Source of the DNA: Candidatus Eiseniibacteriota bacterium
GTDB lineage: Bacteria; Desulfobacterota; Binatia; DP-6
DNA length: 64,000 bases
Assembly: GCA_035577985.1 (NCBI GenBank)
Contig: DATJZY010000025.1
Span: forward strand, 66,229-130,228
Reading direction: 5' to 3'
This document shows positions 7,700 to 28,099 of this stretch, in pieces. Below the pieces are notes generated by a model. The model did not search any database. It had not been told where the DNA came from and was given only the letters and a program-made list of their open reading frames with translations. The stretch's first letter is position 1. Every line of letters starts with the position of its first letter. The position numbers and the translations under genes are program-made.

Positions 7700-7703
<4 letters not shown>
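7416..7703 (+). CDS. Hypothetical small protein
   Basis: GC3-biased frame (MRADRSLTERILSVLRPY...); alternative start 7383; no recognisable domain. Confidence 0.4.
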
Positions 7704-9265
<1,562 letters not shown>

Positions 9266-9276
9266 ACCGCGCCCGG

Positions 9277-9296
9277 GGTGCAACGGCGCTTGCACC
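9277..9296. promoter_or_regulatory. Perfect 7-bp inverted repeat GGTGCAA-N6-TTGCACC in the 59-bp divergent intergenic region
   Basis: Read directly: GGTGCAAcggcgcTTGCACC; lies 12 nt upstream of the EBP start and 29 nt upstream of the thiolase start. Confidence 0.4.
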
Positions 9297-9324: not shown

Positions 9325-10500
9325 ATGTCCGCCCATCCGCTGCGTGGCAGCGCCGCGATCGCCGGCCTCGGCATCACGCCACAGGGCAAGGTGTACGGAC
9401 AGGGCGCGGTCGGCTTCGCGGTCGACGCCGTGCGCACGGCGCTCGACGACGCCGGTCTCCAGCGCTCGGATCTGGACGGCCTCCTCCTCAACCCGGGGCT
9501 CACCTGGGGTGACATGGGCATGGGCTCCTTCCAGCTCCAGCAGGCGATGGGGCTCCACAACCTGCGCCTCTCCGCGACGATGAACCTCGGCGGCGCCACC
9601 GCCGCCGCCATGATCCAGCACGCGGCCCAGGCGATCGCGGCGGGCCTGTGCACGACGGTCGTGTGCGTCTTTTCGGATGCGCCGCTGAAGCCGCCGGCGC
9701 CGAAGGGGGAAAAACAGTCGACGGGCGCGGCGTATGCGTTCGCGCGCGGGTGGGAGGCCGCCTACGGCTTCTTCGGCGTGAACGCGATGTACGCGCTCGT
9801 CGCCAAACGGCACATGCACCTCTACGGCACGACCCAGGATCACCTCGGCATGGTCGCCGTCGCGCAGCGCAAGTGGGCGAATCGCAATCCCGCGGCACAG
9901 CTCCACGATCAACCGCTGTCGCTCGAGGACTACCGGCGGTCGCGATGGGTCGTCGAGCCGTTCCACCTCTTCGACTGCTGCCTGGTGTCGAACGGCGGCC
10001 TCGCGGTGATCGTGACGAGCGCCGAGCGGGCGCGCAACGCGAAGAAACCACCCGTCTACGTCTGGGGCATGGGCCAGGGGCACCTCGGCGGCGACGCGGC
10101 CGACACGCTCGCGTCGGGCGCCGTCATCGCGAAGGAACCGGCATTCTCCATGGCGGGCATCACGCTCGCCGACGTCGACGTCGTGGAGCTCTACGACTGC
10201 TACACGTTCACCGTGCTCGTCACGCTCGAGGACTACGGCTTCTGCAAGAAGGGCGAGGGGGGACCATTCGTCGCCGAGCACGTGACCGGCCCCGGCGGCA
10301 AGCTCGCGCTCAACACCGGCGGAGGGCAGCTCTCGAGCTTCTACATGTGGGGCATGACGCCGATCTCCGAGGCGGTGATCCAGCTCCGCGGTGAGGGCGG
10401 CGACCGCCAGGTGCCGAAGCACGACGTGGCGCTCGTGTCCGGCAACGGGGGCGTGCTCTCGACCCACTCGACGCTCGTCCTCTCGAGGCTGCCCGCGTGA
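9325..10500 (+). CDS. Thiolase-like protein (SCP-x/nonspecific lipid-transfer-protein type thiolase)
   Basis: 391 aa; thiolase fold blocks (AIAGLGITPQGK, NLGGATAAAMIQHA, CYTFTVLVTLEDYGFC, SGNGGVLSTHSTLVL); paired with a DUF35 gene as in Ltp2/ChsH-type systems. Confidence 0.75.
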   Translation: MSAHPLRGSAAIAGLGITPQGKVYGQGAVGFAVDAVRTALDDAGLQRSDLDGLLLNPGLTWGDMGMGSFQLQQAMGLHNLRLSATMNLGGATAAAMIQHAAQAIAAGLCTTVVCVFSDAPLKPPAPKGEKQSTGAAYAFARGWEAAYGFFGVNAMYALVAKRHMHLYGTTQDHLGMVAVAQRKWANRNPAAQLHDQPLSLEDYRRSRWVVEPFHLFDCCLVSNGGLAVIVTSAERARNAKKPPVYVWGMGQGHLGGDAADTLASGAVIAKEPAFSMAGITLADVDVVELYDCYTFTVLVTLEDYGFCKKGEGGPFVAEHVTGPGGKLALNTGGGQLSSFYMWGMTPISEAVIQLRGEGGDRQVPKHDVALVSGNGGVLSTHSTLVLSRLPA

Positions 10501-10928
10501 CCACCCCCTCCGCCAGCCCTCCTGCGAAGCCCCTGCCGCAGATCTCGCCCGAGATGGCGCCCTTCTTCGCCGCCGCGCGTCGCCACGAGCTGGTCGTCCA
10601 GCGCTGTGGCACGTGCCACACGATGCGATTTCCGGCACGGGCCGTGTGCAGCCGGTGCCTCGGGCGCGAGAGCGAATGGGTTCCCGTATCGGGGCGTGGC
10701 GAGGTCTTCAGCGTGGCCGTCATGCACCAGGCGAATCACCCGGGCTTCGCCGCGGAGGTCCCGTACGCCGTGGTCGTCGTCGCGCTCGAGGAGGGCGTCC
10801 GCATGCTGTCGAACGTGGTCGACTGCCCCGTCCGGGAGGTCCGGATCGGCCTCCCGGTCGAGGTCACGTTCGACGACGTGACCCCCGAGGTGACCCTGCC
10901 GAAGTTCCGCCCCCGGCGGGGTGCCTGA
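10497..10928 (+). CDS. DUF35 Zn-ribbon/OB-fold protein (thiolase partner)
   Basis: CGTCHTMRFPARAVCSRC zinc ribbon followed by OB-fold region; GTGA overlap with the thiolase stop. Confidence 0.75.
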   Translation: MTTPSASPPAKPLPQISPEMAPFFAAARRHELVVQRCGTCHTMRFPARAVCSRCLGRESEWVPVSGRGEVFSVAVMHQANHPGFAAEVPYAVVVVALEEGVRMLSNVVDCPVREVRIGLPVEVTFDDVTPEVTLPKFRPRRGA

Positions 10929-10992: not shown

Positions 10993-12510
10993 ATGTCCGA
11001 GGAGTCAGAGCTTCAAGTCAGACGGGAGCGTGACCTCTATCTTCGACTCTTGCGGCTGGGCGACGCACAGGAGCTCGAGCCCTTTCTTCGCGAGGCCCTC
11101 GCGCTCATCGTCGAGGTGACCGGCGCACGCCTCGGCTACCTGCAGGTCGACGACGTCGACCATGATCCCGCGGGCGAGGGGTGGTGGATGCAGCACGGTT
11201 TCTCGGAGGGGGAGCTCGCCCAGGTGCGAGCCAGCATCTCGCAGGGGATCGTGGCGCAGGCGCTCGAGACCGGCGAGACGATCATGACGGCGTCGGCCCT
11301 CCTCGACCCGCGCTTCCGCGAGCGCGGGAGCGTCCGCGCCAGCCGCATCGAGTCGGTGCTGTGCGCGCCGATCGGCCGTGATCCGCGCCTGGGTGTGCTC
11401 TACCTGCAGGGCCGCACCGAGCCCGGGACCTTCACGGAGGAGGATCGATCGAACGCCGAGGTGTTCGCGCGCCACCTGGCGCCGCTGGCGGACCGACTGC
11501 TCACGCAGGAGCGGCGGCGGATCGACACCGACGCCACGCGCGCGGCTCGCCTGCGCCTGCGCGCCGACGGCGTGATCGGGCGCAGCGCCGCGCTCGCCAG
11601 GGTCCTCCAGCAGGTGGCCCTCGTGGCGCCGCTCGAGCTGTCCATCCTGCTCACGGGCGAGACCGGAACCGGCAAGAGCCAGCTCGCGCGCGTGATCCAC
11701 GACAACAGCCTGCGGGCGTCGGGTCCGTTCATCGAGCTCAACTGCGCCGCGCTCCCGGACAACCTGATCGAGAGCGAGCTGTTCGGGGCCATGCCCGGCG
11801 CCCACTCGACGGCGACCAAGCGGATCGAGGGCAAGCTCGCCGCCGCCACGCAGGGGACGCTCCTGCTCGACGAGGTCGGCGACCTCTCGCTGCCGGCGCA
11901 GGCGAAGCTCCTGCAGCTCCTGCAATCGGGGGAATACTTTCCGCTGGGGGCCGCGCGGTCCATCCGCGCCGACGTCCGCATCATCGCCGCGACCAACACG
12001 GATCTCGCCGCCGCGATGGCCGAGCACCGCTTCCGCGAGGATCTCTTCTACCGGCTGCACGTGCTGCCGATCCACGTGCCGAGCCTCGCCGAGCGGCGGG
12101 ACGACATCGGCGCGCTCGCCCAGTACTTCTGCGCCCAGGCGAGCGAGCGGCATCGGCTGCCGCACGTCGGCATCTCGCCGTACGCCCAGCGGGCGCTCGA
12201 GGCCGCGGAGTGGCCCGGCAACGTGCGCCAGCTCGCGCACAGCGTCGAAGCCGCCACCATCCGCGCCGCGGCGACCGGCGCGCGCTGGGTCGAGCGCGGC
12301 CACTTCTTCCCCGAGACGGGATCGAACGGGACCGAGCACAACGGACAGCTGACGTTCCAGGAGGCGACGCGGCGCTTCCACGTGAAGCTGCTCCGCGACA
12401 CGCTGGACGAATCTGGATGGAGCGTGATCGAGGCCGCCCGCCGTCTCGACCTCGCGCGCTCGCACGTCTACAACCTGATCCGCGCCCTCGGCATCGAGCG
12501 CCCGAAGTAG
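10993..12510 (+). CDS. Sigma-54-dependent transcriptional activator with N-terminal GAF domain (second copy)
   Basis: Walker A GETGTGKSQ, ESELFG, C-terminal HTH; 505 aa. Confidence 0.9.
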   Translation: MSEESELQVRRERDLYLRLLRLGDAQELEPFLREALALIVEVTGARLGYLQVDDVDHDPAGEGWWMQHGFSEGELAQVRASISQGIVAQALETGETIMTASALLDPRFRERGSVRASRIESVLCAPIGRDPRLGVLYLQGRTEPGTFTEEDRSNAEVFARHLAPLADRLLTQERRRIDTDATRAARLRLRADGVIGRSAALARVLQQVALVAPLELSILLTGETGTGKSQLARVIHDNSLRASGPFIELNCAALPDNLIESELFGAMPGAHSTATKRIEGKLAAATQGTLLLDEVGDLSLPAQAKLLQLLQSGEYFPLGAARSIRADVRIIAATNTDLAAAMAEHRFREDLFYRLHVLPIHVPSLAERRDDIGALAQYFCAQASERHRLPHVGISPYAQRALEAAEWPGNVRQLAHSVEAATIRAAATGARWVERGHFFPETGSNGTEHNGQLTFQEATRRFHVKLLRDTLDESGWSVIEAARRLDLARSHVYNLIRALGIERPK

Positions 12511-12584
12511 CTTCCGCGTCCACGATCGTGGACACGGCGTCAACACCGCGCGACGCCGCGGCGGCGGTTCCGTGCGCAATCCCG

Positions 12585-12600
12585 TGGCACCCGTCTTGCT
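12585..12600 (+). promoter_or_regulatory. Sigma-54 (-24/-12) promoter, consensus-perfect
   Basis: TGGCAC-ccgtc-TTGCT at 12585-12600 matches TGGCAC-N5-TTGCW exactly; about 75 nt downstream of the EBP stop, same strand. Confidence 0.6.
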
Positions 12601-12613
12601 CCGGAAAGACGGC

Positions 12614-12856
12614 ATGACGGGTAGCTGGTTGCAGACGGTACGCGGGAACGTGCGCTTCCTGCACAGGCGCGTCCCGCGACGGCGTCGGGCCTATGGCACC
12701 TGTGCCGCCTGCGGCGTGGCGCTCGAAGGGGCCGCCGATGGGTGGGAAGCGGCCGAGACACAGCTCCGCCGGCACGAGCTGGCGTGCCCACGCGACCGGC
12801 ACCCGGCGCCCAGACGCTCGGCAGCACCGAGGCTGGGCGCGGTCTCATCGACCTGA
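12614..12856 (+). CDS. Candidate small (80 aa) Cys-containing protein immediately downstream of the sigma-54 promoter (speculative)
   Basis: ATG 12614 sits 2-4 nt after the predicted +1; CxxC (GTCAACG) and C...H; moderate GC3 bias; Arg-rich, so it could be a spurious ORF. Confidence 0.2.
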   Translation: MTGSWLQTVRGNVRFLHRRVPRRRRAYGTCAACGVALEGAADGWEAAETQLRRHELACPRDRHPAPRRSAAPRLGAVSST

Positions 12857-12895
12857 CCTTCCTGGCGCAGATCTCCCTCCGCGCCGGGTGACGGG

Positions 12896-12926
12896 CTCCG
12901 CGGGGCCGCCTGTCGGCCCCGCGGAG
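12896..12926 (+). terminator. Perfect 12-bp GC stem / 7-nt loop hairpin (candidate terminator or attenuator; no U-tract)
   Basis: CTCCGCGGGGCC gcctgtc GGCCCCGCGGAG read directly from the sequence. Confidence 0.35.
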
Positions 12927-12929
12927 CGC

Positions 12930-12983
12930 GACCGTTCGGGCCCCGGAGTAGCCGGCCTGCAACCCCCGGCCGACCGTTCGGGC
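12930..12983 (+). promoter_or_regulatory. Two identical 12-bp direct repeats GACCGTTCGGGC (AlgR/LytTR-like half sites) upstream of lytS
   Basis: Copies at 12930-12941 and 12972-12983 (42-bp spacing); core CCGTTCG matches the P. aeruginosa AlgR box CCGTTCGTC; lies 74-127 nt upstream of the LytS start. Confidence 0.4.
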
Positions 12984-13056
12984 GAAACTGCTCGCGCGCG
13001 GGCGCCCGGCGCGCAACCGTAGTCGGTGAGGCCCGGCCTGCGGTAGCATCGGCGCC

Positions 13057-14190
13057 ATGGTCTCGGCCGACATCGTCATGAAGCGACCGTTCCTTCGAGA
13101 TCGCATGTTCCAGGTCGTGCTCGCCATGGGCGCGGCCGTGGGCCTCCACCTGGGCCTCCTCCACCTCTTCCTGTGGAAGACGGCGGCCGCCCCGCTCACC
13201 TTCTTCGTGTGCGCGCTCGTCTTCGCGTCCGTCGCCTACGCGCTGCAGCGATGGATCTTCCCGGCGCTCTCACGGCCGTCCTTCGCTGCCCAGGTGACGC
13301 TCGAGGTCGTGGCCGCGACGATCGCCTTCGGCGCGCTGTCGGTGGTGGTCGCATCGACGGTGGCGTACCTCCTGGGCGCGCCGCCGCTCTTCGGCAGCCC
13401 CACCGGAGCGGAGGAGCACATCCTCATCACCCCGGCGATGCGGCAGGCTGGCGTCCGCATGTACGCCCTCATGCCGATCGTGCCCACCGTCATCTCGTCG
13501 GTCATCGGCTATCACCTCGTCTGGCGGCGTATGGAGACGCTGCAGACCCGGGCGCAGGAGCTGACCGAGCTCGCCGCGACCGCACAGCTCGCCGCCCTGC
13601 GGGCGCAGATCAATCCGCACTTCCTGTTCAACAGTCTCAACTCGATCGCGCAGCTGATCCACGTCGACCCCGCCAAGGCCGAGGCGTGCGTCGAGCGGCT
13701 GGCCGAGATCTTCCGCTACCTCCTGCACCGCGCCGAGCAGGAGTTCGTGCCGCTCGCGGACGAGCTCCAGATGACGACGGCCTACCTCGAGATCGAGCGC
13801 GCGCGGTTCGACGAACGGCTGCGGGTCGAGACGCGCGTCGATCCGCGGAGCCTGCGGCGCCTGATTCCGAACCTGATCCTGCAGCCCCTGGTCGAGAACG
13901 CGGTGAAGCACGGCCTCTCGCGCAAGGTCGGGCCCGGCACGCTGCGCATCGACGCGCTGGTCGAAGACGAGATGCTGACGCTCGTCATCGGCGACGACGG
14001 GCTCGGCATGTCGTCCTCGGTGCTCGATTCGGTGTACGACCGCGGCGTCGGCCTGCGCAACCTGCGCGCCCGCCTCGAGCGCCTCTATGGGCCGTCGCAC
14101 CTGCCCGAGATCACGAGCACGCCCGGCGGCGGCACTCGCGTGTGCTTGCGCCTGCCCACGCGCGACGCCCTGCCACGCCAGGCGGCATGA
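13057..14190 (+). CDS. LytS/YehU-family sensor histidine kinase (5TM + His_kinase + HATPase_c)
   Basis: N-terminal TM helices; INPHFLFNSLNSIAQL (LytS-type H box region); LQPLVENAVKHG and GxGLxN ATPase motifs. Confidence 0.85.
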   Translation: MVSADIVMKRPFLRDRMFQVVLAMGAAVGLHLGLLHLFLWKTAAAPLTFFVCALVFASVAYALQRWIFPALSRPSFAAQVTLEVVAATIAFGALSVVVASTVAYLLGAPPLFGSPTGAEEHILITPAMRQAGVRMYALMPIVPTVISSVIGYHLVWRRMETLQTRAQELTELAATAQLAALRAQINPHFLFNSLNSIAQLIHVDPAKAEACVERLAEIFRYLLHRAEQEFVPLADELQMTTAYLEIERARFDERLRVETRVDPRSLRRLIPNLILQPLVENAVKHGLSRKVGPGTLRIDALVEDEMLTLVIGDDGLGMSSSVLDSVYDRGVGLRNLRARLERLYGPSHLPEITSTPGGGTRVCLRLPTRDALPRQAA

Positions 14191-14948
14191 CATCGATCCG
14201 CACGCTCGTCGTCGACGACGAGAAGCTCGCGCGCGATCGCCTCATCGGGTTTCTCGCCAAGGTCGACGGGGTGGAGGTGATCGGGCAGGCGATCAACGGC
14301 GTCGAGGCCGTCGAACGCATCGAGCAGGACCAGCCGGACCTGGTGTTCCTCGACGTCCAGATGCCCGGCATGGACGGCTTCGACGTGCTGAAGTCGCTCT
14401 CGCGCCCCGCGCCGCAGGTGGTGTTCGCGACGGCCTACGACGAGTACGCGATCCGCGCCTTCGAGGTCCAGGCGGTCGACTACCTCCTGAAGCCGTTCGC
14501 CCGCGCGCGCGTCGAAGAAGCGGTGGGCCGCGTCCGGACGCGCCTCGATCACGGCACGCCCGGGCTCGACGTCGAAGCGGTGCTGAAGCGCCTCGAGGAC
14601 AGCCGCAAGGACCACGTGCGGCAGGTGCCGGTGCACGCGGGTAAGCGCATCCTGCTGCTCCCGGTGGAAGACGTCCTGTGGTTCGGCGTCGAGTATCGCC
14701 TGGTCTACGCGCACACGGCCGAGCGCGCCTACATGACCAACCTCACGCTGCGCGAGCTCGAGGAGCGCCTCGACCCCGACGCGTTCTTCCGGGCCCACAA
14801 GGCGAGCCTCGTGAACATGCGCCAGGTGCGCGAGATCGTCCCCTGGTTCGGTGGTCGCTACAAGCTCGTCATGAAGGACGGCGCGGCAAGCGAGGTCGCC
14901 GTCAGCCGTGCCCAGGCGCGGGAGCTGCGCACGAAGCTGCGCTGGTGA
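14187..14948 (+). CDS. LytTR/AlgR-family response regulator (REC + LytTR DNA-binding domain)
   Basis: LVVDDE...FLDVQMPGMDGF receiver; C-terminal LytTR domain (VPVHAGKRILLLPVEDVLWF...); ATGA overlap with the kinase stop. Confidence 0.85.
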   Translation: MTSIRTLVVDDEKLARDRLIGFLAKVDGVEVIGQAINGVEAVERIEQDQPDLVFLDVQMPGMDGFDVLKSLSRPAPQVVFATAYDEYAIRAFEVQAVDYLLKPFARARVEEAVGRVRTRLDHGTPGLDVEAVLKRLEDSRKDHVRQVPVHAGKRILLLPVEDVLWFGVEYRLVYAHTAERAYMTNLTLRELEERLDPDAFFRAHKASLVNMRQVREIVPWFGGRYKLVMKDGAASEVAVSRAQARELRTKLRW

Positions 14949-15014: not shown

Positions 15015-16265
15015 ATGTCGCCCCCCCCTCCTCCGGTCTCGTCCTTCCATCCCCGGGCCGCCCGCAGCGCCGTCGCGCTCCTGGTCTCGATCCTCCTCCA
15101 CGTCGTCTTCGTCGCGCTCGTGATCTTCGACGTGACGGGGCTCGGCGGCGGGTTCGGCATCGGCGTCGGTCCGGGCTTCGGCATCGGCAGCGGCGGCGGT
15201 CCCGGCCTCGGCGAACAGCAGCGGCGCGAGATCTTCTCGCTCGAGGACATCCCGGACCTCGTGCGGCCGCAGGAGCCGAACTCCGAGCAGGAGCTGACCG
15301 CATTGCTGGCGCCGCGCGAAGCCGAGCGCATCCTCGTCCCGCAGCCGGCGAAGCCCAAGACGGCGACGTCGACCAACGCGCCCGTCATCCAGTTCGCCCG
15401 ACCCGTGAAGCCGATCGGCGCCGGCACCGATCTCGGCGCGCGCCTCGCGGCGGCGGGCGCGGGCTCGGGCGGCATCGGCCTCGGCGGCGGAGGCGGTGGT
15501 CTCGGCTGGTCGCTCGGCAGCTCGTTCGGAAAATACGTCGGGGGGCTCCGCAAGGTCGGCCTCGACGTCGCCATCGTCGTCGACTCGACCGGCAGCATGC
15601 AGAACATCATCGACGACCTGAAGCGCCGCCTGCAGGACCTGGTGCGCACCATGCAGCGCCTCGTCCCGACGGCGCGCATCGGCGCCGTCGCCTATCGCGA
15701 CCGCACCGACGACAAGGTCGCGACCGCACCGCGGCAGAGCGAGGATTTCCTCGTGAAGTGGAGCGACCTCACCTACAACGCCTCGAAGGTGCAGTCCTTC
15801 CTCGGCGGCATCGTCGCCGAGGGCGGCGGCGACTGGAAGGAAGCCGTGAAGGAAGGGCTCGAGACGGCGATGAAGCAGCTCAAGTGGCGCCCCGATGCCA
15901 AGAAGGTGATCATCATCGTCGGCAGCTCACCGCCGCACGACGAAGATCTCCCCGCCATCCGGAACCTCATCGCCGACTGGCGCGCGCGCAACGGCTACGT
16001 GAGCACGATCGACGTCAGCTATCCGCTCCACGCCGAGCACGAGCGCAAGCTCAATCGCTGGCTCTACGGCGAGGAGCCGAAGGAGATCTCGCCGCTGCCC
16101 GAGTTCTACAAGGAGCTGCAGCAGAGCTTCCACGAGATCTCGAAGCAGGGCGGCGGCACGGACGTCGCGCTGGGCGAGGACGCGGCGCTGGTGCGCAACG
16201 TGCTCGTGCTGGCATTCGGGTCGCAGTGGGAGAAAGAGGTGGGCCGCGTCGCACGCGGCCGGTAA
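15015..16265 (+). CDS. Membrane-anchored von Willebrand factor A (VWA) domain protein with TonB-like N-terminal architecture
   Basis: Single N-terminal TM helix ([20 protein letters not shown]), Gly-rich then Pro/Lys-rich linker, C-terminal VWA with MIDAS DxSxS (VVDSTGSM). Confidence 0.75.
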
Positions 16266-16290: not shown

Positions 16291-16950
16291 ATGGAGAACG
16301 CCGTCAACCCCGTGGACCTCAGCTTCTGGACCTTGATCCAGCAGGGCGCGATCTCGACCTATCCCCTGCTCATCTGCTCGGTCATCGTGGTGGCCGTCGC
16401 GCTCGAACGCGCCTGGGCGCTGCGCGGCGCGCTCGCCGCGGCGCCCGCGCTCGCGGCGCGCATTGCGCCGACGCTCGCCAACGGCGACGCGAAGAACGCG
16501 ATCGCGACGCTGGCGCAGGCCCCCGCCACCGCTGCGCGACGCGTCTTCGCCGACATCCTGGCCGAGCCGGGGCTCGAACGGACCGAGCTCGAGCGGATCG
16601 CCGACGAACGCCAGTTCGAGGAGGCCCAGGAGGCCGGATCCTATCTCTGGATCCTCGGCACGATCGGATCGTCGGCGCCGTTCATCGGCCTGTTCGGTAC
16701 GGTGATGGGCATCATCCGCTCGTTCCACAGCATGGCGATCGCCGGCACCGGCGGCTTCGGCGTCGTCGCGGGCGGCATCTCCGAGGCGCTGATCGCAACC
16801 GCGCTCGGGCTCGCGGTCGGCATCCTCGCGGTCGTCCTCTACAACTACTTCCAGGCGCGCGTGGAACGCATCGACGCGGCCCTGCAGATCGGCAGCGCTC
16901 GGGTCGTGGAAGCGCTCATGGCCGGACGGAGAGCGCATGGCGTTCGGTAA
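16291..16950 (+). CDS. MotA/TolQ/ExbB-family proton-channel protein
   Basis: 219 aa, three TM helices, conserved TolQ/ExbB C-terminal TM2-TM3 block ([24 protein letters not shown]...[17 protein letters not shown]); GAGGAG RBS. Confidence 0.85.
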
Positions 16951-17341
16951 GGCCCATCGCCGCGGCCAGATCGTCGCCGAGATCAACGTCACGCCGCTGA
17001 CGGACGTATTCCTGGTCCTCCTCATCATCTTCATGATCACCACCTCGGCCATGGTGAAGCCCGCGGCCGACGTGAACCTGCCCGAGACCGCCGAGGACAA
17101 CCAGGAGACCCAGGGCGTCATGGTGACCATGACGCCGAGCAAGCAGATCTACGTCGGCGATCGCTCGGTCGAGGGCGACGACGCGGCGGTCGTGAGCGCG
17201 CTCAAGGACGCGCTCGCGCGCGCCAAGCAGAAGGTCGTGATCCTCGCCGGCGACCGGCAGGTCGTGCTCGGCGAGGTCGTTCGCGTGCTCGGGCTTGCCA
17301 AGGAGGCGGGCGCGTCCGGCTTCGCCCTGGCCTCGGAGTGA
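16937..17341 (+). CDS. ExbD/TolR-family biopolymer transport protein
   Basis: 134 aa; [19 protein letters not shown] signature TM; overlaps the ExbB stop. Confidence 0.85.
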
Positions 17342-19479
17342 TCGCCCGCGCCTTCTGCCTGGCGACCCTGATCGTCCTCGGGGTCGCGGCCGCCCTGCGC
17401 GCCGAGAGCCTCGGCGAGCTCGAGCGCCGGGCGAAGGCGTTCTACGACCTGCTCGAGCGCGGGCAGAAGGAGCAGGCCGCCGCGATCTTCCCCGACCTGG
17501 AGAAGGCCCTCGCCTCGACGCTGGACGACCTGCAGGAGCGGCTCGATCGCATGCGCGACGAGGTGATGGAGCGCGACGGCGACATCGAAGCGCTCTACAA
17601 GGAATCGCGCTGGCGCGACCCGGAGATCGCATCGCTGGTCATCACCTATCATCTGGCGTGGGTCCGCTATCAGGGCGCGCAGCTCACGACCGACCAGCGC
17701 CGCAAGAATCAGCTCCTCGACAAGGCGGTCGAGGGCTTCTCGCAGTTCCTGGTCGTGAACGAGGTTCCCGAGGTGTACGCCGAGAGCCAGTACGGGCGCG
17801 GCCTCGCGTTCCTGGACCTCGGCAACTACGCGCAGGCGCGCGACGACCTCGAGGCCGCCGCGAAGGATCCGCGCACTGCCGCCAAGGCGCGATCGGCGCT
17901 CGCCGAGCTGGCGCGACGGCAGGGCGGCAAGGCGAGCAAGGAGCCGGCTCCCGACGATCCCGAGACGCTCCTCGCGCAGCTCGGCGACGCGCTGCCGAAG
18001 GTGGCGAGCAACGCGGCGCTGGAGAAGGACACGACGGCCCTCGCCCGCGGTCTCGCGGCCCGCGGCGGCGACTGGCCGAAGCGCGTCGACGGCACGATCG
18101 CGACCAAGCTCGGCAACGGCACCCCGAGCGGCGTCACGTCGAGCTACGGCCTTCTCCTCCTGGCCCAGCTCGCGATCGATCGTAATCGCTGCGCAGACGT
18201 CGCGCCGCTCGCCGACGCGGGCGGCGCGGTGAAGGACGCGACGCGCGCGCGCTATCGGCCGGAGCTGCTCTACCTCGACGCCGGCTGCCTCATGAACGCG
18301 GGGAAGACGCGCGAGGCCGCCCAGGCGTTCGAGGAGCTGCTGCGCGACTTCCCGGATGCGGCGCGCGCGCGCGACGCCGCCTACTACCGCTTCCGCGCGC
18401 TCGACGTCGCACGTGCGAGCGACGCGTCGCTCGCAGCCGCGTACGAGGACGCACTCACGACCTTTGCGACGCGCTTCCCGAAGGACGACGCGGTCGGCGA
18501 GGCGCGCTACCAGCTGGGCGAGCTCTTGCGCAGTCGCGGCGACTGTCCGAAGGCCGAGGCGGAGTACGCACACGTCACGGCCGGTCCGTTCGCGACGCGC
18601 GCGCGCCTGGGCGCGCTCGAATGCGCGGTGGGCGCGCTCGTAAAGGCCGGCAAGGACGCCCCGCCGGAGCAGCGCCGCGCGCTCCTCGAACGCCTGCGCG
18701 CCTTCGTGCGCGACGTGCCCGCCAAGGGCGCCGACGAACAGGCCGTCGCGCGCGCGGCCCTCATGGGCGGTCTCGTCGCGGCAGACGCGCGCCCACCCGA
18801 CTCCGCGGCGGTGGTCGAGTTCCTCGACAAGTACGAGACCCGGTTCCCGGCCGCGAAGGAATGGCACGCGACGGCGGTCCAACGGCGCCTCGTCGCGCGC
18901 GTGGCGCTCGGGCAGCTCGACGCCGCGGAGCGTGACCTCGACGCGTACCTCGCCGCCGGTCCCGAGGCCGACCGCCGGCGCGTGCTCGACGACCTCGGGC
19001 GCGCGCTCCAGAAGCAGCTCGACGACCCCGACGAGGCGAAGCGACGCGCGGCGCTCGCGCTCGCACGCAAGGTCTACGGCGCTCTGGTGGCGAGCGGCGG
19101 TGAGACCGCCGACCGCGTGGCGCTCGCCGACCTCGAGCTGCGCGGCGGCAACGCCGCCGACGCGCGGCGGAGCTACGACGAGGTGCTGGCGAAGGATCCG
19201 ACCTCGGCCGAGGCGATGCGCGGCGCCGCGCGGGCGGCGGCGGCGCTCGGCGATCGTGCGGGCGCGCTCGCGCGCTGGAAGCAGGTGGTCGAGACGAGCC
19301 CGACCGGCGGCACCGGCTGGTACGAAGCGCGCATCGCCCAGGTGAAGCTCTTCCTCGACGCCGGCCAGAAGGGCGAAGCGTGCGAGGTCGCGCGCCTGTC
19401 CATCGGCAAGTCGACCACCACGGGCGGCGATCAGCTCGACAAGCAGCTCCGGCAGATCGCGACCGCGTCGTGTCGCTGA
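17338..19479 (+). CDS. Periplasmic tetratricopeptide-repeat (TPR) protein, 713 aa
   Basis: Signal peptide ([22 protein letters not shown]); repeated A/L/Y/R-rich helical TPR-like units; GTG start overlapping the ExbD stop (GTGA). Confidence 0.7.
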   Translation: MIARAFCLATLIVLGVAAALRAESLGELERRAKAFYDLLERGQKEQAAAIFPDLEKALASTLDDLQERLDRMRDEVMERDGDIEALYKESRWRDPEIASLVITYHLAWVRYQGAQLTTDQRRKNQLLDKAVEGFSQFLVVNEVPEVYAESQYGRGLAFLDLGNYAQARDDLEAAAKDPRTAAKARSALAELARRQGGKASKEPAPDDPETLLAQLGDALPKVASNAALEKDTTALARGLAARGGDWPKRVDGTIATKLGNGTPSGVTSSYGLLLLAQLAIDRNRCADVAPLADAGGAVKDATRARYRPELLYLDAGCLMNAGKTREAAQAFEELLRDFPDAARARDAAYYRFRALDVARASDASLAAAYEDALTTFATRFPKDDAVGEARYQLGELLRSRGDCPKAEAEYAHVTAGPFATRARLGALECAVGALVKAGKDAPPEQRRALLERLRAFVRDVPAKGADEQAVARAALMGGLVAADARPPDSAAVVEFLDKYETRFPAAKEWHATAVQRRLVARVALGQLDAAERDLDAYLAAGPEADRRRVLDDLGRALQKQLDDPDEAKRRAALALARKVYGALVASGGETADRVALADLELRGGNAADARRSYDEVLAKDPTSAEAMRGAARAAAALGDRAGALARWKQVVETSPTGGTGWYEARIAQVKLFLDAGQKGEACEVARLSIGKSTTTGGDQLDKQLRQIATASCR

Positions 19480-21068: not shown

Positions 21069-21563
21069 TCAGGCGGCGTCGGCGAGCGCCATGCGCGCGA
21101 TGACGGGGGTCACGACCATCCCCAGCACGGCGGCGAAGAGCGCCTTGAAGGCGATGAAGCCGCCGAACGTCATCGGGCCGACGTCGGCCGCGCCCATCAT
21201 CCAGGTCGCTGGGATCCCGACCACGGCGATGCACGCGATCCCGAGCAGCGTGCCGCGTCCCGCGAGGCTCGCCGGCAGCCGGCGCAGCAGCGACGGACCC
21301 GCCCAGGGGAGCGGCGGCACGCGGCCGCTGCGCACCTGGCTGCGCACGATGCGGCTCGCGATGAGGGTCGTGAAGAACGGCAGGAAGAACGTCGTTCCGA
21401 TCGTGTCGCCGCCGATGCTCTGTTGGCCCCACAGCGGCACCGTCGTCGCACCGCGGAACGTCGCCCAGGCGATCGCGGCATTGAGCAGGAGGTTCACGAC
21501 GCCGGCGCCGATGCCCTGGTCGAGGATCAGGTAGCGCCGGTGGGTGGGAGACATGCGGGGCAT
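21069..21563 (-). CDS. Hypothetical integral membrane protein (about 4 TM)
   Basis: Hydrophobic segments; no recognisable motif. Confidence 0.45.
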   Translation of the reverse strand: MPRMSPTHRRYLILDQGIGAGVVNLLLNAAIAWATFRGATTVPLWGQQSIGGDTIGTTFFLPFFTTLIASRIVRSQVRSGRVPPLPWAGPSLLRRLPASLAGRGTLLGIACIAVVGIPATWMMGAADVGPMTFGGFIAFKALFAAVLGMVVTPVIARMALADAA

Positions 21564-21628
21564 ATGGCGTACCCCCGCCGCCCCTGTCCAGCGCGATCCC
21601 CTCGTGCCTTGACGGACCTCGGCGTCAC

Positions 21629-23119
21629 GTGGACCCTGCGGCGGTGGCGGAGAATGGAGGGGTCACGGCCGTCGTGCTCGGCGGCAGCGTCGCCGGGCTC
21701 GCGACGGCCCGCCTGCTCGCGCGGCATTTCGACCGCGTGATCGTGCTCGAGCGCGACGTCCGTCCCGAGGTCGACGGACCCGAGACGGCCTTCGCATCGT
21801 GGCAGCGTCCTGGCGTTCCGCAGTTCCGCCATTCCCACGCATTCCTCGCCCGGCTGCGGCTCGTGCTCCTGGCGCACATGCCGGACGTGCTCGAGCGCCT
21901 GCGCACCGCGGGCGTGCGCGAGATCCAGCTCGCCGAGACCGTGCCGCCCGGCATGACGTGGGCGCCCGCGCCCGGCGACGACGACGTGGTGCTGCTCGCC
22001 TGTCGCCGTGCGACGTTCGAGTGGGCACTGCGCGAGAGCGTGCGCGCCCTGCCGACCGTCGAGTTGCGCGAGGGCGTCGGCGCGGCGGGTCTCACGGCGA
22101 TCGGCCGCGACGGGAGCCGTCCGCAGGTGAGCGGCGTGCGTCTCGACGACGACGGCGTGCTCCCCGCAGCGCTCGTCGTCGATGCGAGCGGGCGGCGCTC
22201 GCGCGCCGTGCAGTGGCTGGAGGCACTCGGCACGGCGCGGCCACGCGAGAAGTCGAGCGACACCGGCATCCTCTACTACACGCGTTTCTACCGCCTCCTG
22301 CACGGCAAGCCGCCGACCGGCGGCACGGGGCTCGTCGCGGGCGACGTCGGCTGGGTGAAGCTGGCGATCTTCCCCGGCGACCACGGCACGTTCTCGATCA
22401 CCGTCGGTCCGCCGGTCGACGACGCGGCGTTGAAGCGCCTCGGCGATCCGGAGCAGTTCGAGCGCTTCGTGGGCGCCTTCCCCACGATCGCGCCGTGGCG
22501 CGCTCCCGGCACCTCGGAGCCCATCTTCGGCCGCTCGACGCCCGTCCTCGTCATGGGCCAGCTCCGAAATCGCCTCCGCCACTTCGTCGACGACGAGGGG
22601 CCGCTCGCGCCCGGCTTCGTCGCGGTCGGCGACGCGGCCTACCACTCGAATCCGATCTACGGCCGCGGCTGTCCGTCGGCGCTCATGATGGTCGAGCTGC
22701 TCGACGAGGCGATCGGCCGCCATCCCGACGATCCGATCGCGATGGGCCGCCACTACCATGCGGCGTGCGAGACGCACGTGCGGCCGTTCTGGGACGCGGC
22801 GGTCGGATCCGATCGCCGGATGCTCGGCGAGCGCCGCCGCCTCGCGACCAACGGCCGAGCGGCGCTCGTGCAGATGGCCGAAGAGGCGTTCGCCTGGCTC
22901 TTCGACCGCGGCATCGGTCCCGCGACGCGCGTCGATCCGGTCGTCTTCCGCGGGCTCCTGCGCGTCTTCCACATGCTCGACGTGCCCGAGCAGCTCCTGC
23001 TCAACCCCGAGATCGTCCTGCGCTCGCTGCCCGTGCTGGCGCGCGTGCTGCGGGGCGACGTTCCGCCGCAGCAGTTCCCGCCGATCGGGCGCGAGCAGGT
23101 GCTCGCACGGCTCGGGTAG
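21629..23119 (+). CDS. FAD-dependent oxidoreductase/monooxygenase
   Basis: N-terminal dinucleotide-binding motif VVLGGSVAGLATARLL; GD motif region (VAVGDAAYHSNPIYGRG). Confidence 0.7.
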   Translation: MDPAAVAENGGVTAVVLGGSVAGLATARLLARHFDRVIVLERDVRPEVDGPETAFASWQRPGVPQFRHSHAFLARLRLVLLAHMPDVLERLRTAGVREIQLAETVPPGMTWAPAPGDDDVVLLACRRATFEWALRESVRALPTVELREGVGAAGLTAIGRDGSRPQVSGVRLDDDGVLPAALVVDASGRRSRAVQWLEALGTARPREKSSDTGILYYTRFYRLLHGKPPTGGTGLVAGDVGWVKLAIFPGDHGTFSITVGPPVDDAALKRLGDPEQFERFVGAFPTIAPWRAPGTSEPIFGRSTPVLVMGQLRNRLRHFVDDEGPLAPGFVAVGDAAYHSNPIYGRGCPSALMMVELLDEAIGRHPDDPIAMGRHYHAACETHVRPFWDAAVGSDRRMLGERRRLATNGRAALVQMAEEAFAWLFDRGIGPATRVDPVVFRGLLRVFHMLDVPEQLLLNPEIVLRSLPVLARVLRGDVPPQQFPPIGREQVLARLG

Positions 23120-23188
23120 GCACCTGCTCGGGCTCGTTGACGGCCGTTCCCGGCCCGCGCTAGACGCCGCGGCGGGGGCGAGACTGGC

Positions 23189-23743
23189 ATGTCGACGTAT
23201 GGGCCCGTGGCCGCGCTGGCCCTCTCGACCTCCGCGGCCGTCATCCTTGCCACCGGTTGCGACCTTCGAAGCGATCGCATGCGACCGTCCGTCGGCCCCC
23301 CCGCCACGGGCCTCGGCGCGCACGTCGTTCGCACCGTCGAGGTCTCGTCGGCCCTCTCGATGCCGTCGCTGCGCGTGGTCACGCCGGAGATGCTGCGCGA
23401 CGTGCTGCAACGCGCCCTCACCGACGCCGGCGCGTACGGCGCCGGCGGCCGCTACGTGCTGCACACGAAGATCGTGAGGCTCGAGGGCGGCGGATCGGGC
23501 ATCGGCTTCAACCGCTACGCGCTCGTCGCGATCGACAATCGGCTCGTGGACGATCGCGATCCCGCTTGGAACTGGCACGACGAGGCGTCGGCGAGTCCGG
23601 GCATGCTCCCCATTCCCGGGCAGACGTTCGCCGGGATGGATGCGCAGCGCGAGGCGTTCGAGGCGGCGGTGAGCAACGTAGCCGGCCAGACCGCACGCGC
23701 CGTGCGTGACACGCTCGAGCGTCGATCCAAGGAGAGCCCATGA
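23189..23743 (+). CDS. Hypothetical lipoprotein
   Basis: Signal peptide with lipobox ILATGC; ATGA overlap with the following giant gene. Confidence 0.55.
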   Translation: MSTYGPVAALALSTSAAVILATGCDLRSDRMRPSVGPPATGLGAHVVRTVEVSSALSMPSLRVVTPEMLRDVLQRALTDAGAYGAGGRYVLHTKIVRLEGGGSGIGFNRYALVAIDNRLVDDRDPAWNWHDEASASPGMLPIPGQTFAGMDAQREAFEAAVSNVAGQTARAVRDTLERRSKESP

Positions 23744-26700
23744 CGAAACCCCTGTCGATCGCCGCGCTCTGGGTTGCCCTTCTCCTGCCGAGGCCGATCG
23801 TCGCCGCCACCATCACGGTCGCCACGACCGACGACACGAACGCGGTCGCCTGCACGCTGCGCGACGCGATCACGGCCGCCAACACCGACGCCGTGAGCGG
23901 CGCGTGCCCGGCCGGGGCCGGTGACGACACGATCGACCTCAGCGGTCTCGGCGGAACGATCCTGCTCGGAGCCGCGCTCCCCGGGATCACGACGAACATG
24001 ACCCTGCGTGGTCCGGGAGCGCACGTCCTCACCATCAGCGGACAGGACAGCGTGCAGGTCTTCGTCGTGACGGGCCCGACCGTCACGATCTCCGACGTGA
24101 CGATCGCGCACGGCCTCGCTGCCGGCTCTGGTCGGGGCGGCGGTGTCGAGACCCTCGCGGGCTCGGTCGCCCTCACGCTGTCGCGCGTCGTGATCACACT
24201 CTCTCAGGGCTTCAACGGCGGTGGGATCGCGAACGACGGGGGCGGAACCATGACGATCGTCGACAGCGCGATCGTCGGCAACACCACGACCGGCAACGCC
24301 GGCGCGGGCATCTTGAGCGCCCATTCTTCGACGCTCGTCCTCACCAACACGACCGTGGCCGGGAACACCAACACGGGATTGGACCGCGCGGGCGCGGGAC
24401 TCCTGCTCTCTCGTGGCACGGCGACGATCACCAACTGCACCTTCGCCAACAACGTTGGCACGAGCACGGGCGGGTGGGAGATCATGAACCTGGTCCCGAT
24501 GGAGGACCCCGTCGGTACCCTGCATTTGAAGAACACGATCGTCGCCAACCAGTCCGGCCACGGCTGCCTCGGGCCGATCACGTCGGGCGGCCACAACCTC
24601 TCCGACGACACGACCTGCGCGCTCGCGGGCCCCGGCGATCTCCAGGGCGTCGCCGCGGGCCTCAGCGCACTCGGCGACCACGGCGGTCCGACGCCGACTC
24701 TGGCGCTCGTCGCCGGGAGCCCGGCGATCGACGCCGGAGATGCGGCCGCGTGTCCCCCCGCCGACCAGCGCGGGGTCGGCCGGCCGGTCGACGGCGACGC
24801 CAACGGAAGGGCCGGCTGCGACATCGGCGCCTACGAGGTCGGCTGCGGCGACGGGATCCCTCCGAACAGCCGGTGCGCGCCCGACGCGAATCCATGTACC
24901 GACGACGTGTGCGACGCCCTCGGCGCGTGCCAGCATCCGACTGCCGCGACCGGAGCGCCCTGCGACGATGGGGACCACTGCACGCTCGGCGACACCTGCG
25001 CGAGCGGCGTCTGCTCGGCCGGCACGACCCCGGGGTGCCCGGCAGTGGGAAGCCTCACCTACCGCACCTGCATCACCGGCGAGCTCGAGACGGGCCCGGC
25101 GGGAACGAACGCGTGCACGCAGATCGCCGGCGCCACCTCGGTCGCCCAGCACTCGGGTCTCGACAACCTGCGATCGGTGACCGAGAGCGCGGACGGGATC
25201 TCGCTGTACGTCACGTCCGGCAACGACGACGCCGTCGCACGCTTCGACCGGGATCCCACGACCGGAGCGCTCGCGTACCAGGGGTGCATCTCGGGCGCGA
25301 TCGAGACCGGCCCCACGGGCACGAGCGCCTGCGCGCAGATCCCGAGCGCCACCACGGCCGGACAGAGCTCCGGGCTCGATTTGCCGCAGGCGATCGCGCT
25401 CAGCCCGGACGGGAAGTCGCTCTACACCGCGTCCCTCACGGACGACGCGGTCGCCCGTTTCGACCGGGACACCGCGACGGGTGCCCTCACCTACCGCGAC
25501 TGCCTCACCGGGAAGTCCGAGGCGAACGACACCGCCTGTACCAAGATCCCGAGCGCGAGCTCGTCGGGCATCGATTCGGGTCTCGACTCCCTGTCGGCTC
25601 TGGTGGTGAGCACGGACGGAAAGTCGCTCTACACGGTCTCGCGCGACGACGACGCCGTCGCGCGCTTCGATCGCGACACGGCGACCGGCGCCCTCACCTA
25701 CCAGGGCTGCATCACCGGCGAGACCGAGAGCGGGCCCGCCGGCACGGGCGCGTGTGTGCAGATCGGGAGCGCCGCCTCGGGGGGCGCGAACTCCGGGCTC
25801 GATGACCTCTTCTCGCTGGCAGTCAGCGCGGACGGGAAGTCCCTGTACGCCGTCTCCCTATTGGACGATGGGGTCGCTCGCTTCGCCCGCGATCCGGGGG
25901 CGGGCGCCCTCGTCTACCAGGGCTGCATCAGCGGCGAGATCGAGAGCGGCCCCACCGGCACCGGCGCCTGCGCCCAGATCGGCGCCGCGGCGTCGTCGGG
26001 CGTCAACTCCGGGCTCGATGCGCTCTACGCGATCGTCGTCAGCCCCGACGACAAGTCGGTCTACACGGTCTCGCAGGAGGACGACGCCGTCGACCGCTTC
26101 GACCGCGATCCGGGAAACGGCGCGCTCACCTACCAGGGCTGCATCACCGGCGAGACCGAGAGCGGTCCGGCAATCCCGATCCCAGGCACCGGTGCGTGCG
26201 TCGAGATCGCGAGCGCCACCTCGCGCGGAACGAACTCGGGACTCGACAAGCTGCGCTCGATGGCGGCGAGCCCGGACGGGACGTCGCTCTACGTCGCCTC
26301 GCCGCAGGACGACACGATCGCGCACTTCGTGCGTGACCCCATGAGCGGTGCGCTCACCTACGAGAGCTGCATCACGGCGGAGGCAGAGACCGGCCCTACG
26401 GGGACGAACGCCTGTGCCCAGATCCCGAGCGCAACCTCGTTCGGCACGAACTCCGGCGTCGACAATCCGCAGGCATTCCTCGTGAGCCCCGTCGGGCTCC
26501 AGCTCTACACGAGCTCCGGGAACGACGCGGCCGTGGCGCGCTTCGACCGCGAGCCCGAGCCGCCGCCCACGACGACGACCACGACGCTGCCCGGGCAGGC
26601 GATCCGCGGCAAGCTCCTCCTCATCGTCGACGGCACCGACGCCAAGAAGCGCAAGATCGTCTTCAAGGCGAAGGATGCGAGCATCGACACCAGCGCGGGC

Positions 26701-27108
26701 AGCGGCATCGATCCGGTCACGGACGGGGCCGTGTTCCAGGTCTTCAACGATGCGGGCACGGGGGACTCGGCCTGCTTCGATCTTCCCGCGGCCGGATGGA
26801 CGAGGAAGGGCAAGCCGGCCAAGCCGACGTTCCGCTATCGGGACAAGAAGTTCGCGATGGGTCCCTGCAGCCTCACGACCGTCCAGGACGCCAAGTCGCT
26901 CGTGGTCGTGTGTCAGGCGAAGGTGCGGCCGATCGACTACTCGCTCGACCAGCCCGCACAGCAGCGGGTGGGCGTGCGCTTTCGCAGCGGCGGTACCGAG
27001 TACTGCACGGTCTTCGGGGGCAAGGTCCTGAAGGACAAGCAGAAGACAAAGTTCCGGGCGAAGAACGCGCCGGCGGCGTGTCCGGCGGCGCCCGTCGCCT
27101 GTCCCTGA
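23740..27108 (+). CDS. Giant secreted multidomain protein: right-handed beta-helix (ending CDIGAYE) + Myxococcus-type Cys-rich repeat + about 10 beta-propeller repeats + Thr-rich linker + C-terminal domain
   Basis: Signal peptide MTKPLSIAALWVALLLPRPIVA; GGGIANDGGGTMTIVDSAIVGNTTTGNAGAGI beta-helix repeats; PDANPCTDDVCDALGAC; repeats SPDGKSLYxxSxxDDAVARFDRDxxTGALTYQGCITGExESGPxGTGAC. Confidence 0.75.
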   Translation: MTKPLSIAALWVALLLPRPIVAATITVATTDDTNAVACTLRDAITAANTDAVSGACPAGAGDDTIDLSGLGGTILLGAALPGITTNMTLRGPGAHVLTISGQDSVQVFVVTGPTVTISDVTIAHGLAAGSGRGGGVETLAGSVALTLSRVVITLSQGFNGGGIANDGGGTMTIVDSAIVGNTTTGNAGAGILSAHSSTLVLTNTTVAGNTNTGLDRAGAGLLLSRGTATITNCTFANNVGTSTGGWEIMNLVPMEDPVGTLHLKNTIVANQSGHGCLGPITSGGHNLSDDTTCALAGPGDLQGVAAGLSALGDHGGPTPTLALVAGSPAIDAGDAAACPPADQRGVGRPVDGDANGRAGCDIGAYEVGCGDGIPPNSRCAPDANPCTDDVCDALGACQHPTAATGAPCDDGDHCTLGDTCASGVCSAGTTPGCPAVGSLTYRTCITGELETGPAGTNACTQIAGATSVAQHSGLDNLRSVTESADGISLYVTSGNDDAVARFDRDPTTGALAYQGCISGAIETGPTGTSACAQIPSATTAGQSSGLDLPQAIALSPDGKSLYTASLTDDAVARFDRDTATGALTYRDCLTGKSEANDTACTKIPSASSSGIDSGLDSLSALVVSTDGKSLYTVSRDDDAVARFDRDTATGALTYQGCITGETESGPAGTGACVQIGSAASGGANSGLDDLFSLAVSADGKSLYAVSLLDDGVARFARDPGAGALVYQGCISGEIESGPTGTGACAQIGAAASSGVNSGLDALYAIVVSPDDKSVYTVSQEDDAVDRFDRDPGNGALTYQGCITGETESGPAIPIPGTGACVEIASATSRGTNSGLDKLRSMAASPDGTSLYVASPQDDTIAHFVRDPMSGALTYESCITAEAETGPTGTNACAQIPSATSFGTNSGVDNPQAFLVSPVGLQLYTSSGNDAAVARFDREPEPPPTTTTTTLPGQAIRGKLLLIVDGTDAKKRKIVFKAKDASIDTSAGSGIDPVTDGAVFQVFNDAGTGDSACFDLPAAGWTRKGKPAKPTFRYRDKKFAMGPCSLTTVQDAKSLVVVCQAKVRPIDYSLDQPAQQRVGVRFRSGGTEYCTVFGGKVLKDKQKTKFRAKNAPAACPAAPVACP

Positions 27109-28059: not shown

Positions 28060-28099
28060 TCGCTTGAACCGTCGTTCCGACATGGACTAGGAGCGACCG

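Follow-up and report, generated by a model that had tools for sequence, protein, structure and literature searches.

A conserved, probable sigma-54 promoter and a family of small Cys/His-rich proteins encoded before LytS/LytTR operons of uncultured soil bacteria

The closest described counterparts of the locus analysed here are the sigma-54 promoters served by group III GAF enhancer-binding proteins (EBPs), namely NifA (TGT-N10-ACA), NorR and Myxococcus xanthus PexR, the last of which is autoinhibited by its GAF domain and binds dyad repeats 5' of sigma-54 promoters (PMC12754779). The locus lies in a 64 kb stretch of DNA from a Candidatus Eiseniibacteriota bacterium (contig DATJZY010000025.1; 64,000 nucleotides (nt), analysed as a whole and hereafter called the window), in which an earlier, sequence-only reading had singled out an exact sigma-54 consensus at positions 12585-12600, next to a gene described as a GAF sigma-54 activator (here EBP2). 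The motif shares with the NifA, NorR and PexR promoters the consensus spacing of the -24 GG and -12 GC elements, a 16-bp dyad, here some 60-110 nt upstream, and an adjacent activator gene of GAF-AAA+-helix-turn-helix (HTH) architecture. PexR and NorR use three dyads whereas one clear dyad is present here and, unlike in the NifA, NorR and PexR systems, the contact loop of the neighbouring activator reads GAHSTA rather than GAFTGA.

Further differences concern what would be transcribed. Unlike those of classical sigma-54 targets, the transcript is predicted to be essentially leaderless, and what it encodes is neither an enzyme nor a transporter operon but an orphan small protein; this near-absent leader, the orphan product and the GAHSTA loop found throughout the family of the neighbouring activator constitute the departures from described cases. 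Known leaderless mRNAs are comparable in their AUG start, in the lack of a conserved Shine-Dalgarno sequence and in having the start codon within the expected transcription-start window, a geometry seen also, with a -10-like box, at the lytS gene next door. As described, however, leaderless mRNAs stem from sigma-70-type promoters, whereas the start here is predicted from sequence. Among the sampled matches from the searchable literature, none explicitly described a leaderless mRNA made from a sigma-54 promoter.

Two-component systems are known to be adjusted by small connectors or modulators such as MgrB, SafA, PmrD and Sda. Here too a small protein under a separate regulator is encoded beside a kinase-regulator pair, although the analogy is functional only, with no kinship in sequence or fold. 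The pair itself recalls AlgZ/AlgR (FimS/AlgR) of Pseudomonas, with which it shares a PF06580 kinase, a regulator made of receiver and LytTR domains, and boxes resembling the AlgR core; the phylum differs, as do the downstream genes, which in the window encode VWA, ExbB, ExbD and TPR proteins.

The motif TGGCACCCGTCTTGCT, at 12585-12600 on the + strand, is an exact TGGCAC-N5-TTGCT sequence with the spacing of the sigma-54 (RpoN) -24/-12 consensus (spacer CCGTC; GG at 12586-12587, GC at 12598-12599). Its supposed rarity was borne out: in a window of about 71% G+C it is the sole match, against a mean of 0.01 expected from 100 dinucleotide-preserving shuffles, and the looser pattern YGGYAY-N5-TTGCW likewise matches once, for 0.10 expected. 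The motif begins 74 nt 3' of the EBP2 stop codon and ends 456 nt 5' of the lytS ATG at 13057. Within the latter interval lies an unannotated open reading frame (ORF) of 80 codons (12614-12856, + strand), beginning MTGSWLQTVRGNVRFLHRRVPRRRRAYGTCAACGVALEGAADGWEAAETQLRRHELACPRDRH, which we refer to as the small ORF. We consider that the motif is probably a working sigma-54 promoter and part of a conserved unit with the dyad upstream, a predicted near-leaderless start and the small protein.

Relatives for comparison were gathered by a metagenome scan with LytS, by an EBP2 protein search with context look-ups, and by profile searches with the small ORF followed by further look-ups. Seven lineages, all of them uncultured soil bacteria, carry a homologue of the small ORF: the window together with L082, L123, L125 with L126, L132, L134-L136, L137 and L138 (locus designations of this study). 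A near-identical JGI contig, L081, added no evolutionary information. In six of the seven lineages YGGCAY-N5-TTGCW lies 5' of the small ORF, within DNA that is otherwise diverged or unalignable; across the five lineages that could be aligned, the GG, CA and TTGC columns are invariant while the alignment upstream of the small ORF averages 56% column identity. The motif identified by the sequence-only reading is both unique in the window and conserved in diverged relatives.

The distance from the motif to the small ORF is also conserved. Measured from the -12 C, the A of the ATG lies 15 nt away in the window (TGGCACCCGTCTTGCT), L082 (TGGCACCCGTTTTGCT), L132 (CGGCATCCGGCTTGCA) and L137 (CGGCACTGGACTTGCA), 14 nt in L125 (CGGCATCGGGCTTGCT) and L138 (TGGCATTCGATTTGCA), and 10 nt in L123 (TGGCATCAGGCTTGCT), giving a value of 14-15 nt in five of the six promoter-bearing lineages. 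Over the shorter evolutionary distance that separates the window from L082, only four of the 95 sites in 12585-12679 differ, whereas the third positions of EBP2 and lytS codons give a neutral rate of 15.2% (P = 7e-4).

Sigma-54 transcription usually begins about 12 nt past the GC. The start would accordingly fall at 12610-12614 on the + strand, 11-15 nt past the -12 C at 12599, and since the spacing to the ATG fits this usual distance, a leader of 0-4 nt is predicted. The 12-13 bases between motif and ATG are unconserved, with neither GGAGG nor any shared Shine-Dalgarno sequence, and the start codon of the small ORF is ATG in all lineages. With leaderless taken to mean no more than 5 nt between transcription start and start codon (Beck & Moll 2018, as cited in PMC12754779), the small-ORF mRNA would be leaderless or nearly so.

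The sequence-only reading had suggested looking for upstream activator sequences within 12400-12560; a predicted site of this kind is GTCCACGATCGTGGAC, a perfect 16-bp palindrome, GTCCA-N6-TGGAC, at 12518-12533 (no strand assigned). It is unique in the window, its centre lies about 85 nt 5' of the predicted transcription start, and it is identical in L082 although the surrounding DNA there is 15% different. GTCCR-N6-TGGAC is found upstream of the promoter in five of the seven lineages (the window, L123, L132, L137 and L138), the separations between the first G of the dyad and the -24 GG being 46, 46, 58, 68 and 88 nt; the steps come close to full turns of the helix, a hint that falls short of significance. 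We propose that the dyad is an enhancer for an AAA+ activator. As an alternative, a role as the terminator of EBP2 was considered and judged less likely: the dyad recurs in L137 and L138 without any activator gene upstream, and its stem measures just 5-6 bp. The variant in L125, in which the arms are swapped, is more easily accommodated by a hairpin than by a binding site.

Homologues of the small ORF occur at the matching position in L082, L123, L125, L132, L134, L137 and L138, and conservation is at the protein level. L082 shares the start and stop with the window, and the 24 substitutions between them are split 5/5/14 by codon position (chi-square P = 0.03); across the lineages the nucleotides diverge while reading frame, start, length and particular Cys, His, Trp and Gly residues are retained. 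The family motif is C-x2-C-x20-H-x3-C (C30, C33, H54 and C58 in the window): G28, C30, C33, G34 and H54 are invariant, and conservation reaches 90% or more at W44, A47 and C58. Several members start M-x-x-S-W, most contain GRSLLR, and an LRPA-like C-terminal end is frequent. Of the two alternatives to a cascade that the sequence-only reading had offered, it is thus the leaderless small protein at 12614-12856 that is favoured by the conserved protein family and the fixed distance between ATG and promoter.

The family surfaced only once seeds for a profile were taken from synteny. A single-sequence search with the small ORF gave no homologues and tblastn against the loci only compositional noise, whereas the profile recovered 16 cluster representatives of 58-103 amino acids (aa), 13 of them with E below 1e-10, from among 1.84 billion. 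Pfam, NCBIfam and PDB contain no family or relative above threshold, the sub-threshold matches being DUF7837 (best E = 0.0065), rubre_like_arch (E = 0.0018) and a consensus C2H2 finger (E = 0.0013).

The protein is basic, soluble and rich in Cys and His. An AlphaFold2 model built from 18 sequences places the CxxC on a beta-hairpin (residues 25-29 and 36-39) and the His and remaining Cys on a helix (44-57). Four conserved Cys/His ligands on a knuckle and a helix are what is expected of a zinc finger, so that the protein may be described as zinc-finger-like and predicted to bind zinc, albeit outside any curated family or solved fold.

As a separate observation, the first 22 codons of the small ORF are unchanged with respect to L082, synonymous sites included, where about three synonymous changes would be expected (within 12601-12679). 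This suggests an extra constraint at the nucleotide level, for example from a leaderless initiation region or a DNA site.

Against the unit as proposed stand several observations. The ATG in L123 comes only 10 nt past the -12 C. In the L134-L136 lineage, where EBP2, the small ORF and lytS are all kept, the -12 element is gone through an apparent 22-nt deletion, with CGGCATC directly abutting the ATG (...CGGCATC|ATG...; L134 2651-2714, L136 213-276), and the dyad is lost too; this amounts to a natural promoter knock-out and makes the promoter dispensable in at least one lineage. Many LytS operons of the same type lack the module altogether, that is, they function without it. Scanning of part of the window brought up two genes with Sigma54_activat domains and no rpoN. 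The small ORF has an atypical G+C content at third codon positions (GC3), 0.80 compared with 0.92 in neighbouring genes, in a window where codon-position G+C otherwise sets real genes apart cleanly (GC3 about 0.92, GC2 about 0.48), and gene callers skipped it on the near-identical contig L081. Confidence in the model is moderate (core pLDDT 71-85, mean 69) and fold searches with it gave nothing significant. Finally, whereas conservation of motif, dyad, spacing and protein, the order of the genes and the conserved elements 5' of lytS are observed directly, it is from sequence that we infer the transcription start, rpoN dependence, translation, the acting activator, zinc binding and what the small protein acts on.

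The mechanism that we propose would run as follows. RNA polymerase carrying sigma-54 would wait in a closed complex at 12585-12600 until an enhancer-binding ATPase at the dyad, for which EBP2 is the likeliest candidate, remodels that complex once its GAF domain is relieved. A near-leaderless mRNA, with 0-4 nt of leader and no Shine-Dalgarno sequence, would then give the small zinc-binding protein, which would modulate LytS/LytTR as a connector-type regulator, LytS/LytTR in turn controlling the VWA-ExbB-ExbD-TPR genes. This target is considered the most likely because the small gene is found only directly before lytS of this type. The sigma-54 input would be an added layer rather than the sole drive, lytS probably having a promoter of its own with an AlgR-like operator.

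Such a unit would be of interest in several respects. It brings to light a missed gene family, conserved small proteins absent from database descriptions and passed over by gene callers on L081, and the position of the gene suggests that it has a defined role in regulation, linking a sigma-54 input with a LytTR two-component system. Should the predicted start prove true, a sigma-54 promoter makes a leaderless mRNA under a spacing constraint that holds across lineages, providing a test case for closed-complex, ATP-dependent initiation combined with leaderless translation. Moreover, a GAHSTA family that tracks sigma-54 promoters is a natural experiment on the requirements of the contact loop.

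EBP2 (10993-12510, + strand) matches Pfam Sigma54_activat (PF00158) with E = 1e-59. The earlier claim of a sigma-54-type promoter beside an EBP gene is supported. Its Walker A (GETGTGKS) and Walker B (LLLDEV) motifs are intact and it ends in an HTH, although the match of the latter to HTH_8 is weak (E = 1.3e-3). The designation of the gene as a GAF sigma-54 activator stands as regards GAF-AAA+-HTH architecture but not as regards the canonical GAFTGA, which is absent: EBP2 at 11743-11787 (residues ~251-265), like nearly the whole family, reads ELFGA(L/M)PGAHSTA. Homologues of EBP2 with E below 1e-100 number at least 2682; the GAHSTA loop was read in the best 120 of these and in 44 genome loci, being exact in 37 of the 44. 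The recognition helix of the C-terminal HTH, RSHVYNLIRA, is nearly invariant in a family that spans Polyangiaceae, metagenome-assembled genomes labelled Binatia, and others.

The loop speaks against EBP2 as activator. In PspF the Phe and Thr of GAFTGA contact region I of sigma-54 (PMC3467059), and only Tyr is said to substitute for the Phe with activation retained (Zhang 2009, as cited in PMC2941729). His is not among the tolerated natural variants of the loop listed for Desulfovibrio (PMC4641369), and a search of the accessible literature for 'GAHSTA' returned no relevant paper. Since GAHSTA lacks the Phe and PspF tolerates only Tyr in its stead, EBP2 may not be the activator here.

Genomic context, on the other hand, ties the family to sigma-54 promoters. 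The EBP2 gene is directly 5' of the small ORF in five of the seven lineages (window/L082, L123, L125, L132 and L134, the last without promoter). Elsewhere in the family, an exact sigma-54 motif follows the stop codon by 106-127 nt in 5 of 44 loci (L005 at 7586, L013 at 6219, L018 at 2129, L019 at 7590 and L128 at 4639), where about 0.15 would be expected, an excess of some 30-fold. In the first four of these the motif is succeeded by a gene for a HisKA-like protein of ~283 aa whose ATG lies 13-22 nt past the -12 C, and the promoters are preceded by dyads of the type GTCCAC/GTTCAC...GGACA; in L128 it is succeeded by an unannotated 229-aa ORF with its ATG 31 nt past the -12 C. There may thus be a general layout of activator gene, sigma-54 promoter and target with a short leader. 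EBP2 homologues in species genomes (45-64% identity) do not share synteny and have promoters of CGG type. Dyad enrichment 3' of other EBP2-family genes, with up to two mismatches allowed, was not significant (10 of 44 loci compared with ~13% expected).

Because its HTH is invariant across a family sharing such dyads, EBP2 is the likeliest protein at the dyad, and it is the probable enhancer-binding protein of this promoter. Whether it is also the activating ATPase is a matter of about even odds. A broader proposal, which we advance tentatively, is that GAF EBPs of the GAHSTA type form a large, hitherto unremarked clade of genuine sigma-54 activators with His where the activators studied need Phe or Tyr, and that the present locus displays their typical targets (dyad, sigma-54 promoter and leaderless gene), here a small zinc-finger family coupling a sigma-54 signal to LytS/LytTR over a VWA-ExbBD-TPR envelope machine.

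A possible but more doubtful explanation accepts the promoter as real but assigns its activation to a canonical GAFTGA protein, either EBP1 or one encoded elsewhere, with EBP2 acting as a dyad-bound repressor or anti-activator, or as a regulator of sigma-70 promoters. EBP1, encoded on the - strand at 7700-9295, 3.2 kb upstream, is a GAF-AAA+-HTH (HTH_8) protein with a Sigma54_activat match of E = 5e-69 and with GAFTGA (canonical ELFGHRRGAFTGA motif). EBP2, for its part, is without the Phe that contacts sigma-54 region I (PMC3467059; PMC2941729), and relatives of EBPs that lack sigma-54-contact residues can act with sigma-70, VpsR being an example according to PMC6158489. Nevertheless, there are only three loci, those of the window, L082 and L132, in which EBP1 is close to the module, and the HTHs of EBP1 and EBP2 are unrelated. 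Nor does this explanation sit well with the excess of sigma-54 motifs trailing GAHSTA genes, with the intact Walker motifs of EBP2, or with the strict conservation of GAHSTA itself, suggestive of a functional contact rather than of decay.

Genes of the EBP2 family very often adjoin genes for large Ser/Thr kinases that combine Pkinase with AAA_16 or TPR, as in L004, L006, L010, L016, L020, L021, L125, L127 and others, which hints at kinase control of EBP2-family activators.

If EBP2 or another activator does fire the promoter, there remains the matter of how far transcription extends. The sequence-only reading had envisaged a cascade from EBP through the sigma-54 promoter to the two-component system and the VWA/ExbBD module. 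The downstream genes themselves were confirmed by Pfam as described there: all on the + strand, they are lytS (13057-14190; His_kinase PF06580, E = 3.6e-27, plus HATPase_c), lytTR (14187-14948; Response_reg plus LytTR DNA-binding domain), VWA (15015-16265), exbB (16291-16950; MotA_ExbB), exbD (16937-17341; ExbD) and a gene with TPR repeats (17338-19479). The last four genes remain co-linear with the lytS-lytTR pair throughout the relatives. With its PF06580 kinase, receiver-LytTR regulator and direct-repeat boxes as predicted operators, the system is of the LytS/LytTR (AlgZR-like) kind.

The lytS gene has conserved upstream elements of its own. The AlgR-like repeats noted earlier are indeed present as two copies of GACCGTTCGGGC on the + strand, a distal one at 12930-12941, partly conserved in relatives, and a proximal one at 12972-12983, through which LytTR probably acts as on an operator at the lytS promoter. 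Whether or not they have the small ORF, nearly all relatives examined carry an invariant GACCGTTCG some 84 nt 5' of the lytS ATG, the exceptions being L100, in which the box is at -44, and L137, in which it reads GACCATTCG. The AlgR core is CCGTTCGTC (PMC4064291), and the upstream boxes CCGTTCGGG match it at 7 of 9 positions. Just as invariant 5' of lytS are the blocks GCTCGC and CAC(C/T)GT(A/G)G and, ending 6-7 nt short of the ATG, a TAnnnT element. The conserved columns point to a putative sigma-70-type promoter at 13020-13049 (+ strand), with a -35-like TAGTCG at 13020-13025 and a -10-like TAGCAT at 13044-13049 ending 7 nt before the ATG; a scan of 12300-13200 for consensus sigma-70 promoters and canonical terminators gave nothing. 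Since the box and the -10-like element persist in relatives that have neither the sigma-54 promoter nor the small ORF, lytS probably has its own promoter, with autoregulation through the LytTR protein, and its mRNA is probably itself leaderless.

Between the small ORF and these elements lie two hairpins on the + strand. The first, at 12861-12888 past the small-ORF stop, has a loop of CUCCCUCC. The second is the strong GC hairpin of the sequence-only reading, at 12892-12930, which proved real: its core stem of 14 bp (12895-12908 paired with 12914-12927) lies in a 104-nt stretch that folds at -65.8 kcal/mol (z = -3.2), and it has no U-tract. Comparison with L082 reveals a compensatory change of a C:G pair to A:U and a C-to-U wobble. 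Hairpins of varied strength occupy the same place in L125, L134, L137 and L138, and a weak one is present in L132. The GC hairpin is possibly a terminator or attenuator of the small-ORF transcript.

It is in the light of these elements that one must judge the idea that the real job of the promoter is transcription of lytS-lytTR-VWA-exbBD-TPR through a 450-nt leader, with the small ORF as first cistron or incidental. Wherever downstream sequence is available, lytS is the next gene on the strand of the small ORF, at a distance of 120-220 nt; the intervening hairpin, weak in L132, lacks a U-tract, and the terminator scan was blank. We nonetheless regard this idea as unlikely. The invariant GACCGTTCG box and the -10-like element occur also in some 25 relatives without the sigma-54 promoter and without the small ORF, a 14-bp GC stem kept by compensatory change intervenes in the window, and the small ORF, being conserved as a protein, is not incidental. 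A direct sigma-54 cascade into lytS is accordingly unproven, although a fraction of transcripts may run past the U-less hairpin into lytS.

The hairpin is relevant likewise to the other alternative of the sequence-only reading, in which the promoter would drive a non-coding small RNA of ~280-320 nt ending at 12892-12930. Identity to L082 over the first 66 nt of the transcript, synonymous sites too, and the atypical codon usage of the small ORF might be taken in its favour. Even so, it is very improbable, and the claim was not upheld: what is kept while the nucleotides diverge is a frame with its start and length, along with particular residues (Cys, His, Trp and Gly), and Rfam gave no match at gathering thresholds. 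The RNA may, however, have a dual function, both coding and regulatory. That the motif is nothing but a functionless chance match is scarcely credible, for although one of the 100 window shuffles also yielded one match to TGGCAC-N5-TTGCT, and the L134-L136 lineage manages without the motif, six lineages keep it, its spacing to a conserved ATG being fixed and a conserved dyad lying 5' of it, and its chance density is only about 1e-4 per 140 nt.

The small ORF is directly 5' of lytS in all six lineages with downstream sequence, out of the seven. The window and L082 (LytS 96% identical) have the order EBP1, thiolase, DUF35, EBP2, small ORF and lytS operon, the thiolase-like gene (Pfam Thiolase_C_1) being at 9325-10500 and the DUF35 gene (zf-ChsH2, OB_ChsH2_C) at 10497-10928, both on the + strand. 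L132 (74%) has the complete window order, EBP1 included, while the contig of L123, with thiolase, DUF35, EBP2 and small ORF, stops 5' of lytS. In L125/L126 (72%) a Ser/Thr kinase and a methyltransferase precede EBP2, small ORF and lytS operon; L134-L136 (72%) has EBP2, small ORF and lytS; L137 (62%) has no activator gene nearby; and L138 (45%, N-terminal part only) has DUF35, small ORF and lytS.

Some 25 further LytS relatives (61-67% identity) have the lytS operon with neither small ORF nor sigma-54 motif. Those among them with thiolase, DUF35 and lytS but no EBP2 or small ORF prompted the notion that the module is an inserted cassette, which was dropped since L125, L132, L134, L137 and L138 showed that LytS lineages with the small ORF include closer as well as more distant ones. 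Loss of the module in some lineages is the more likely history.

Some minor features of the region may also be recorded. In relatives without the small ORF the gene just 5' of lytS varies (DUF35, acyltransferase-like, glyoxalase-like or unannotated ORFs in L083, L084, L085, L099 and L102), although the last ~130 nt before lytS are conserved in these same loci, from which it follows that the junction 5' of lytS is a recombination-prone boundary. The CUCCCUCC loop of the first hairpin resembles an anti-Shine-Dalgarno sequence and is kept in the window, L082 and L123 (6840-6870), not in more distant lineages. As to the start of lytS, the JGI call on L081 uses the third ATG (13105, 361 aa), whereas the alignment of relatives supports 13057 (377 aa). 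Further downstream, the window contains large ORFs with a strong coding signature and no Pfam match at 21485-23119, 23141-23743 and 28091-30184, which flank a 1132-aa beta-helix/lactonase-repeat protein encoded at 23710-27108.

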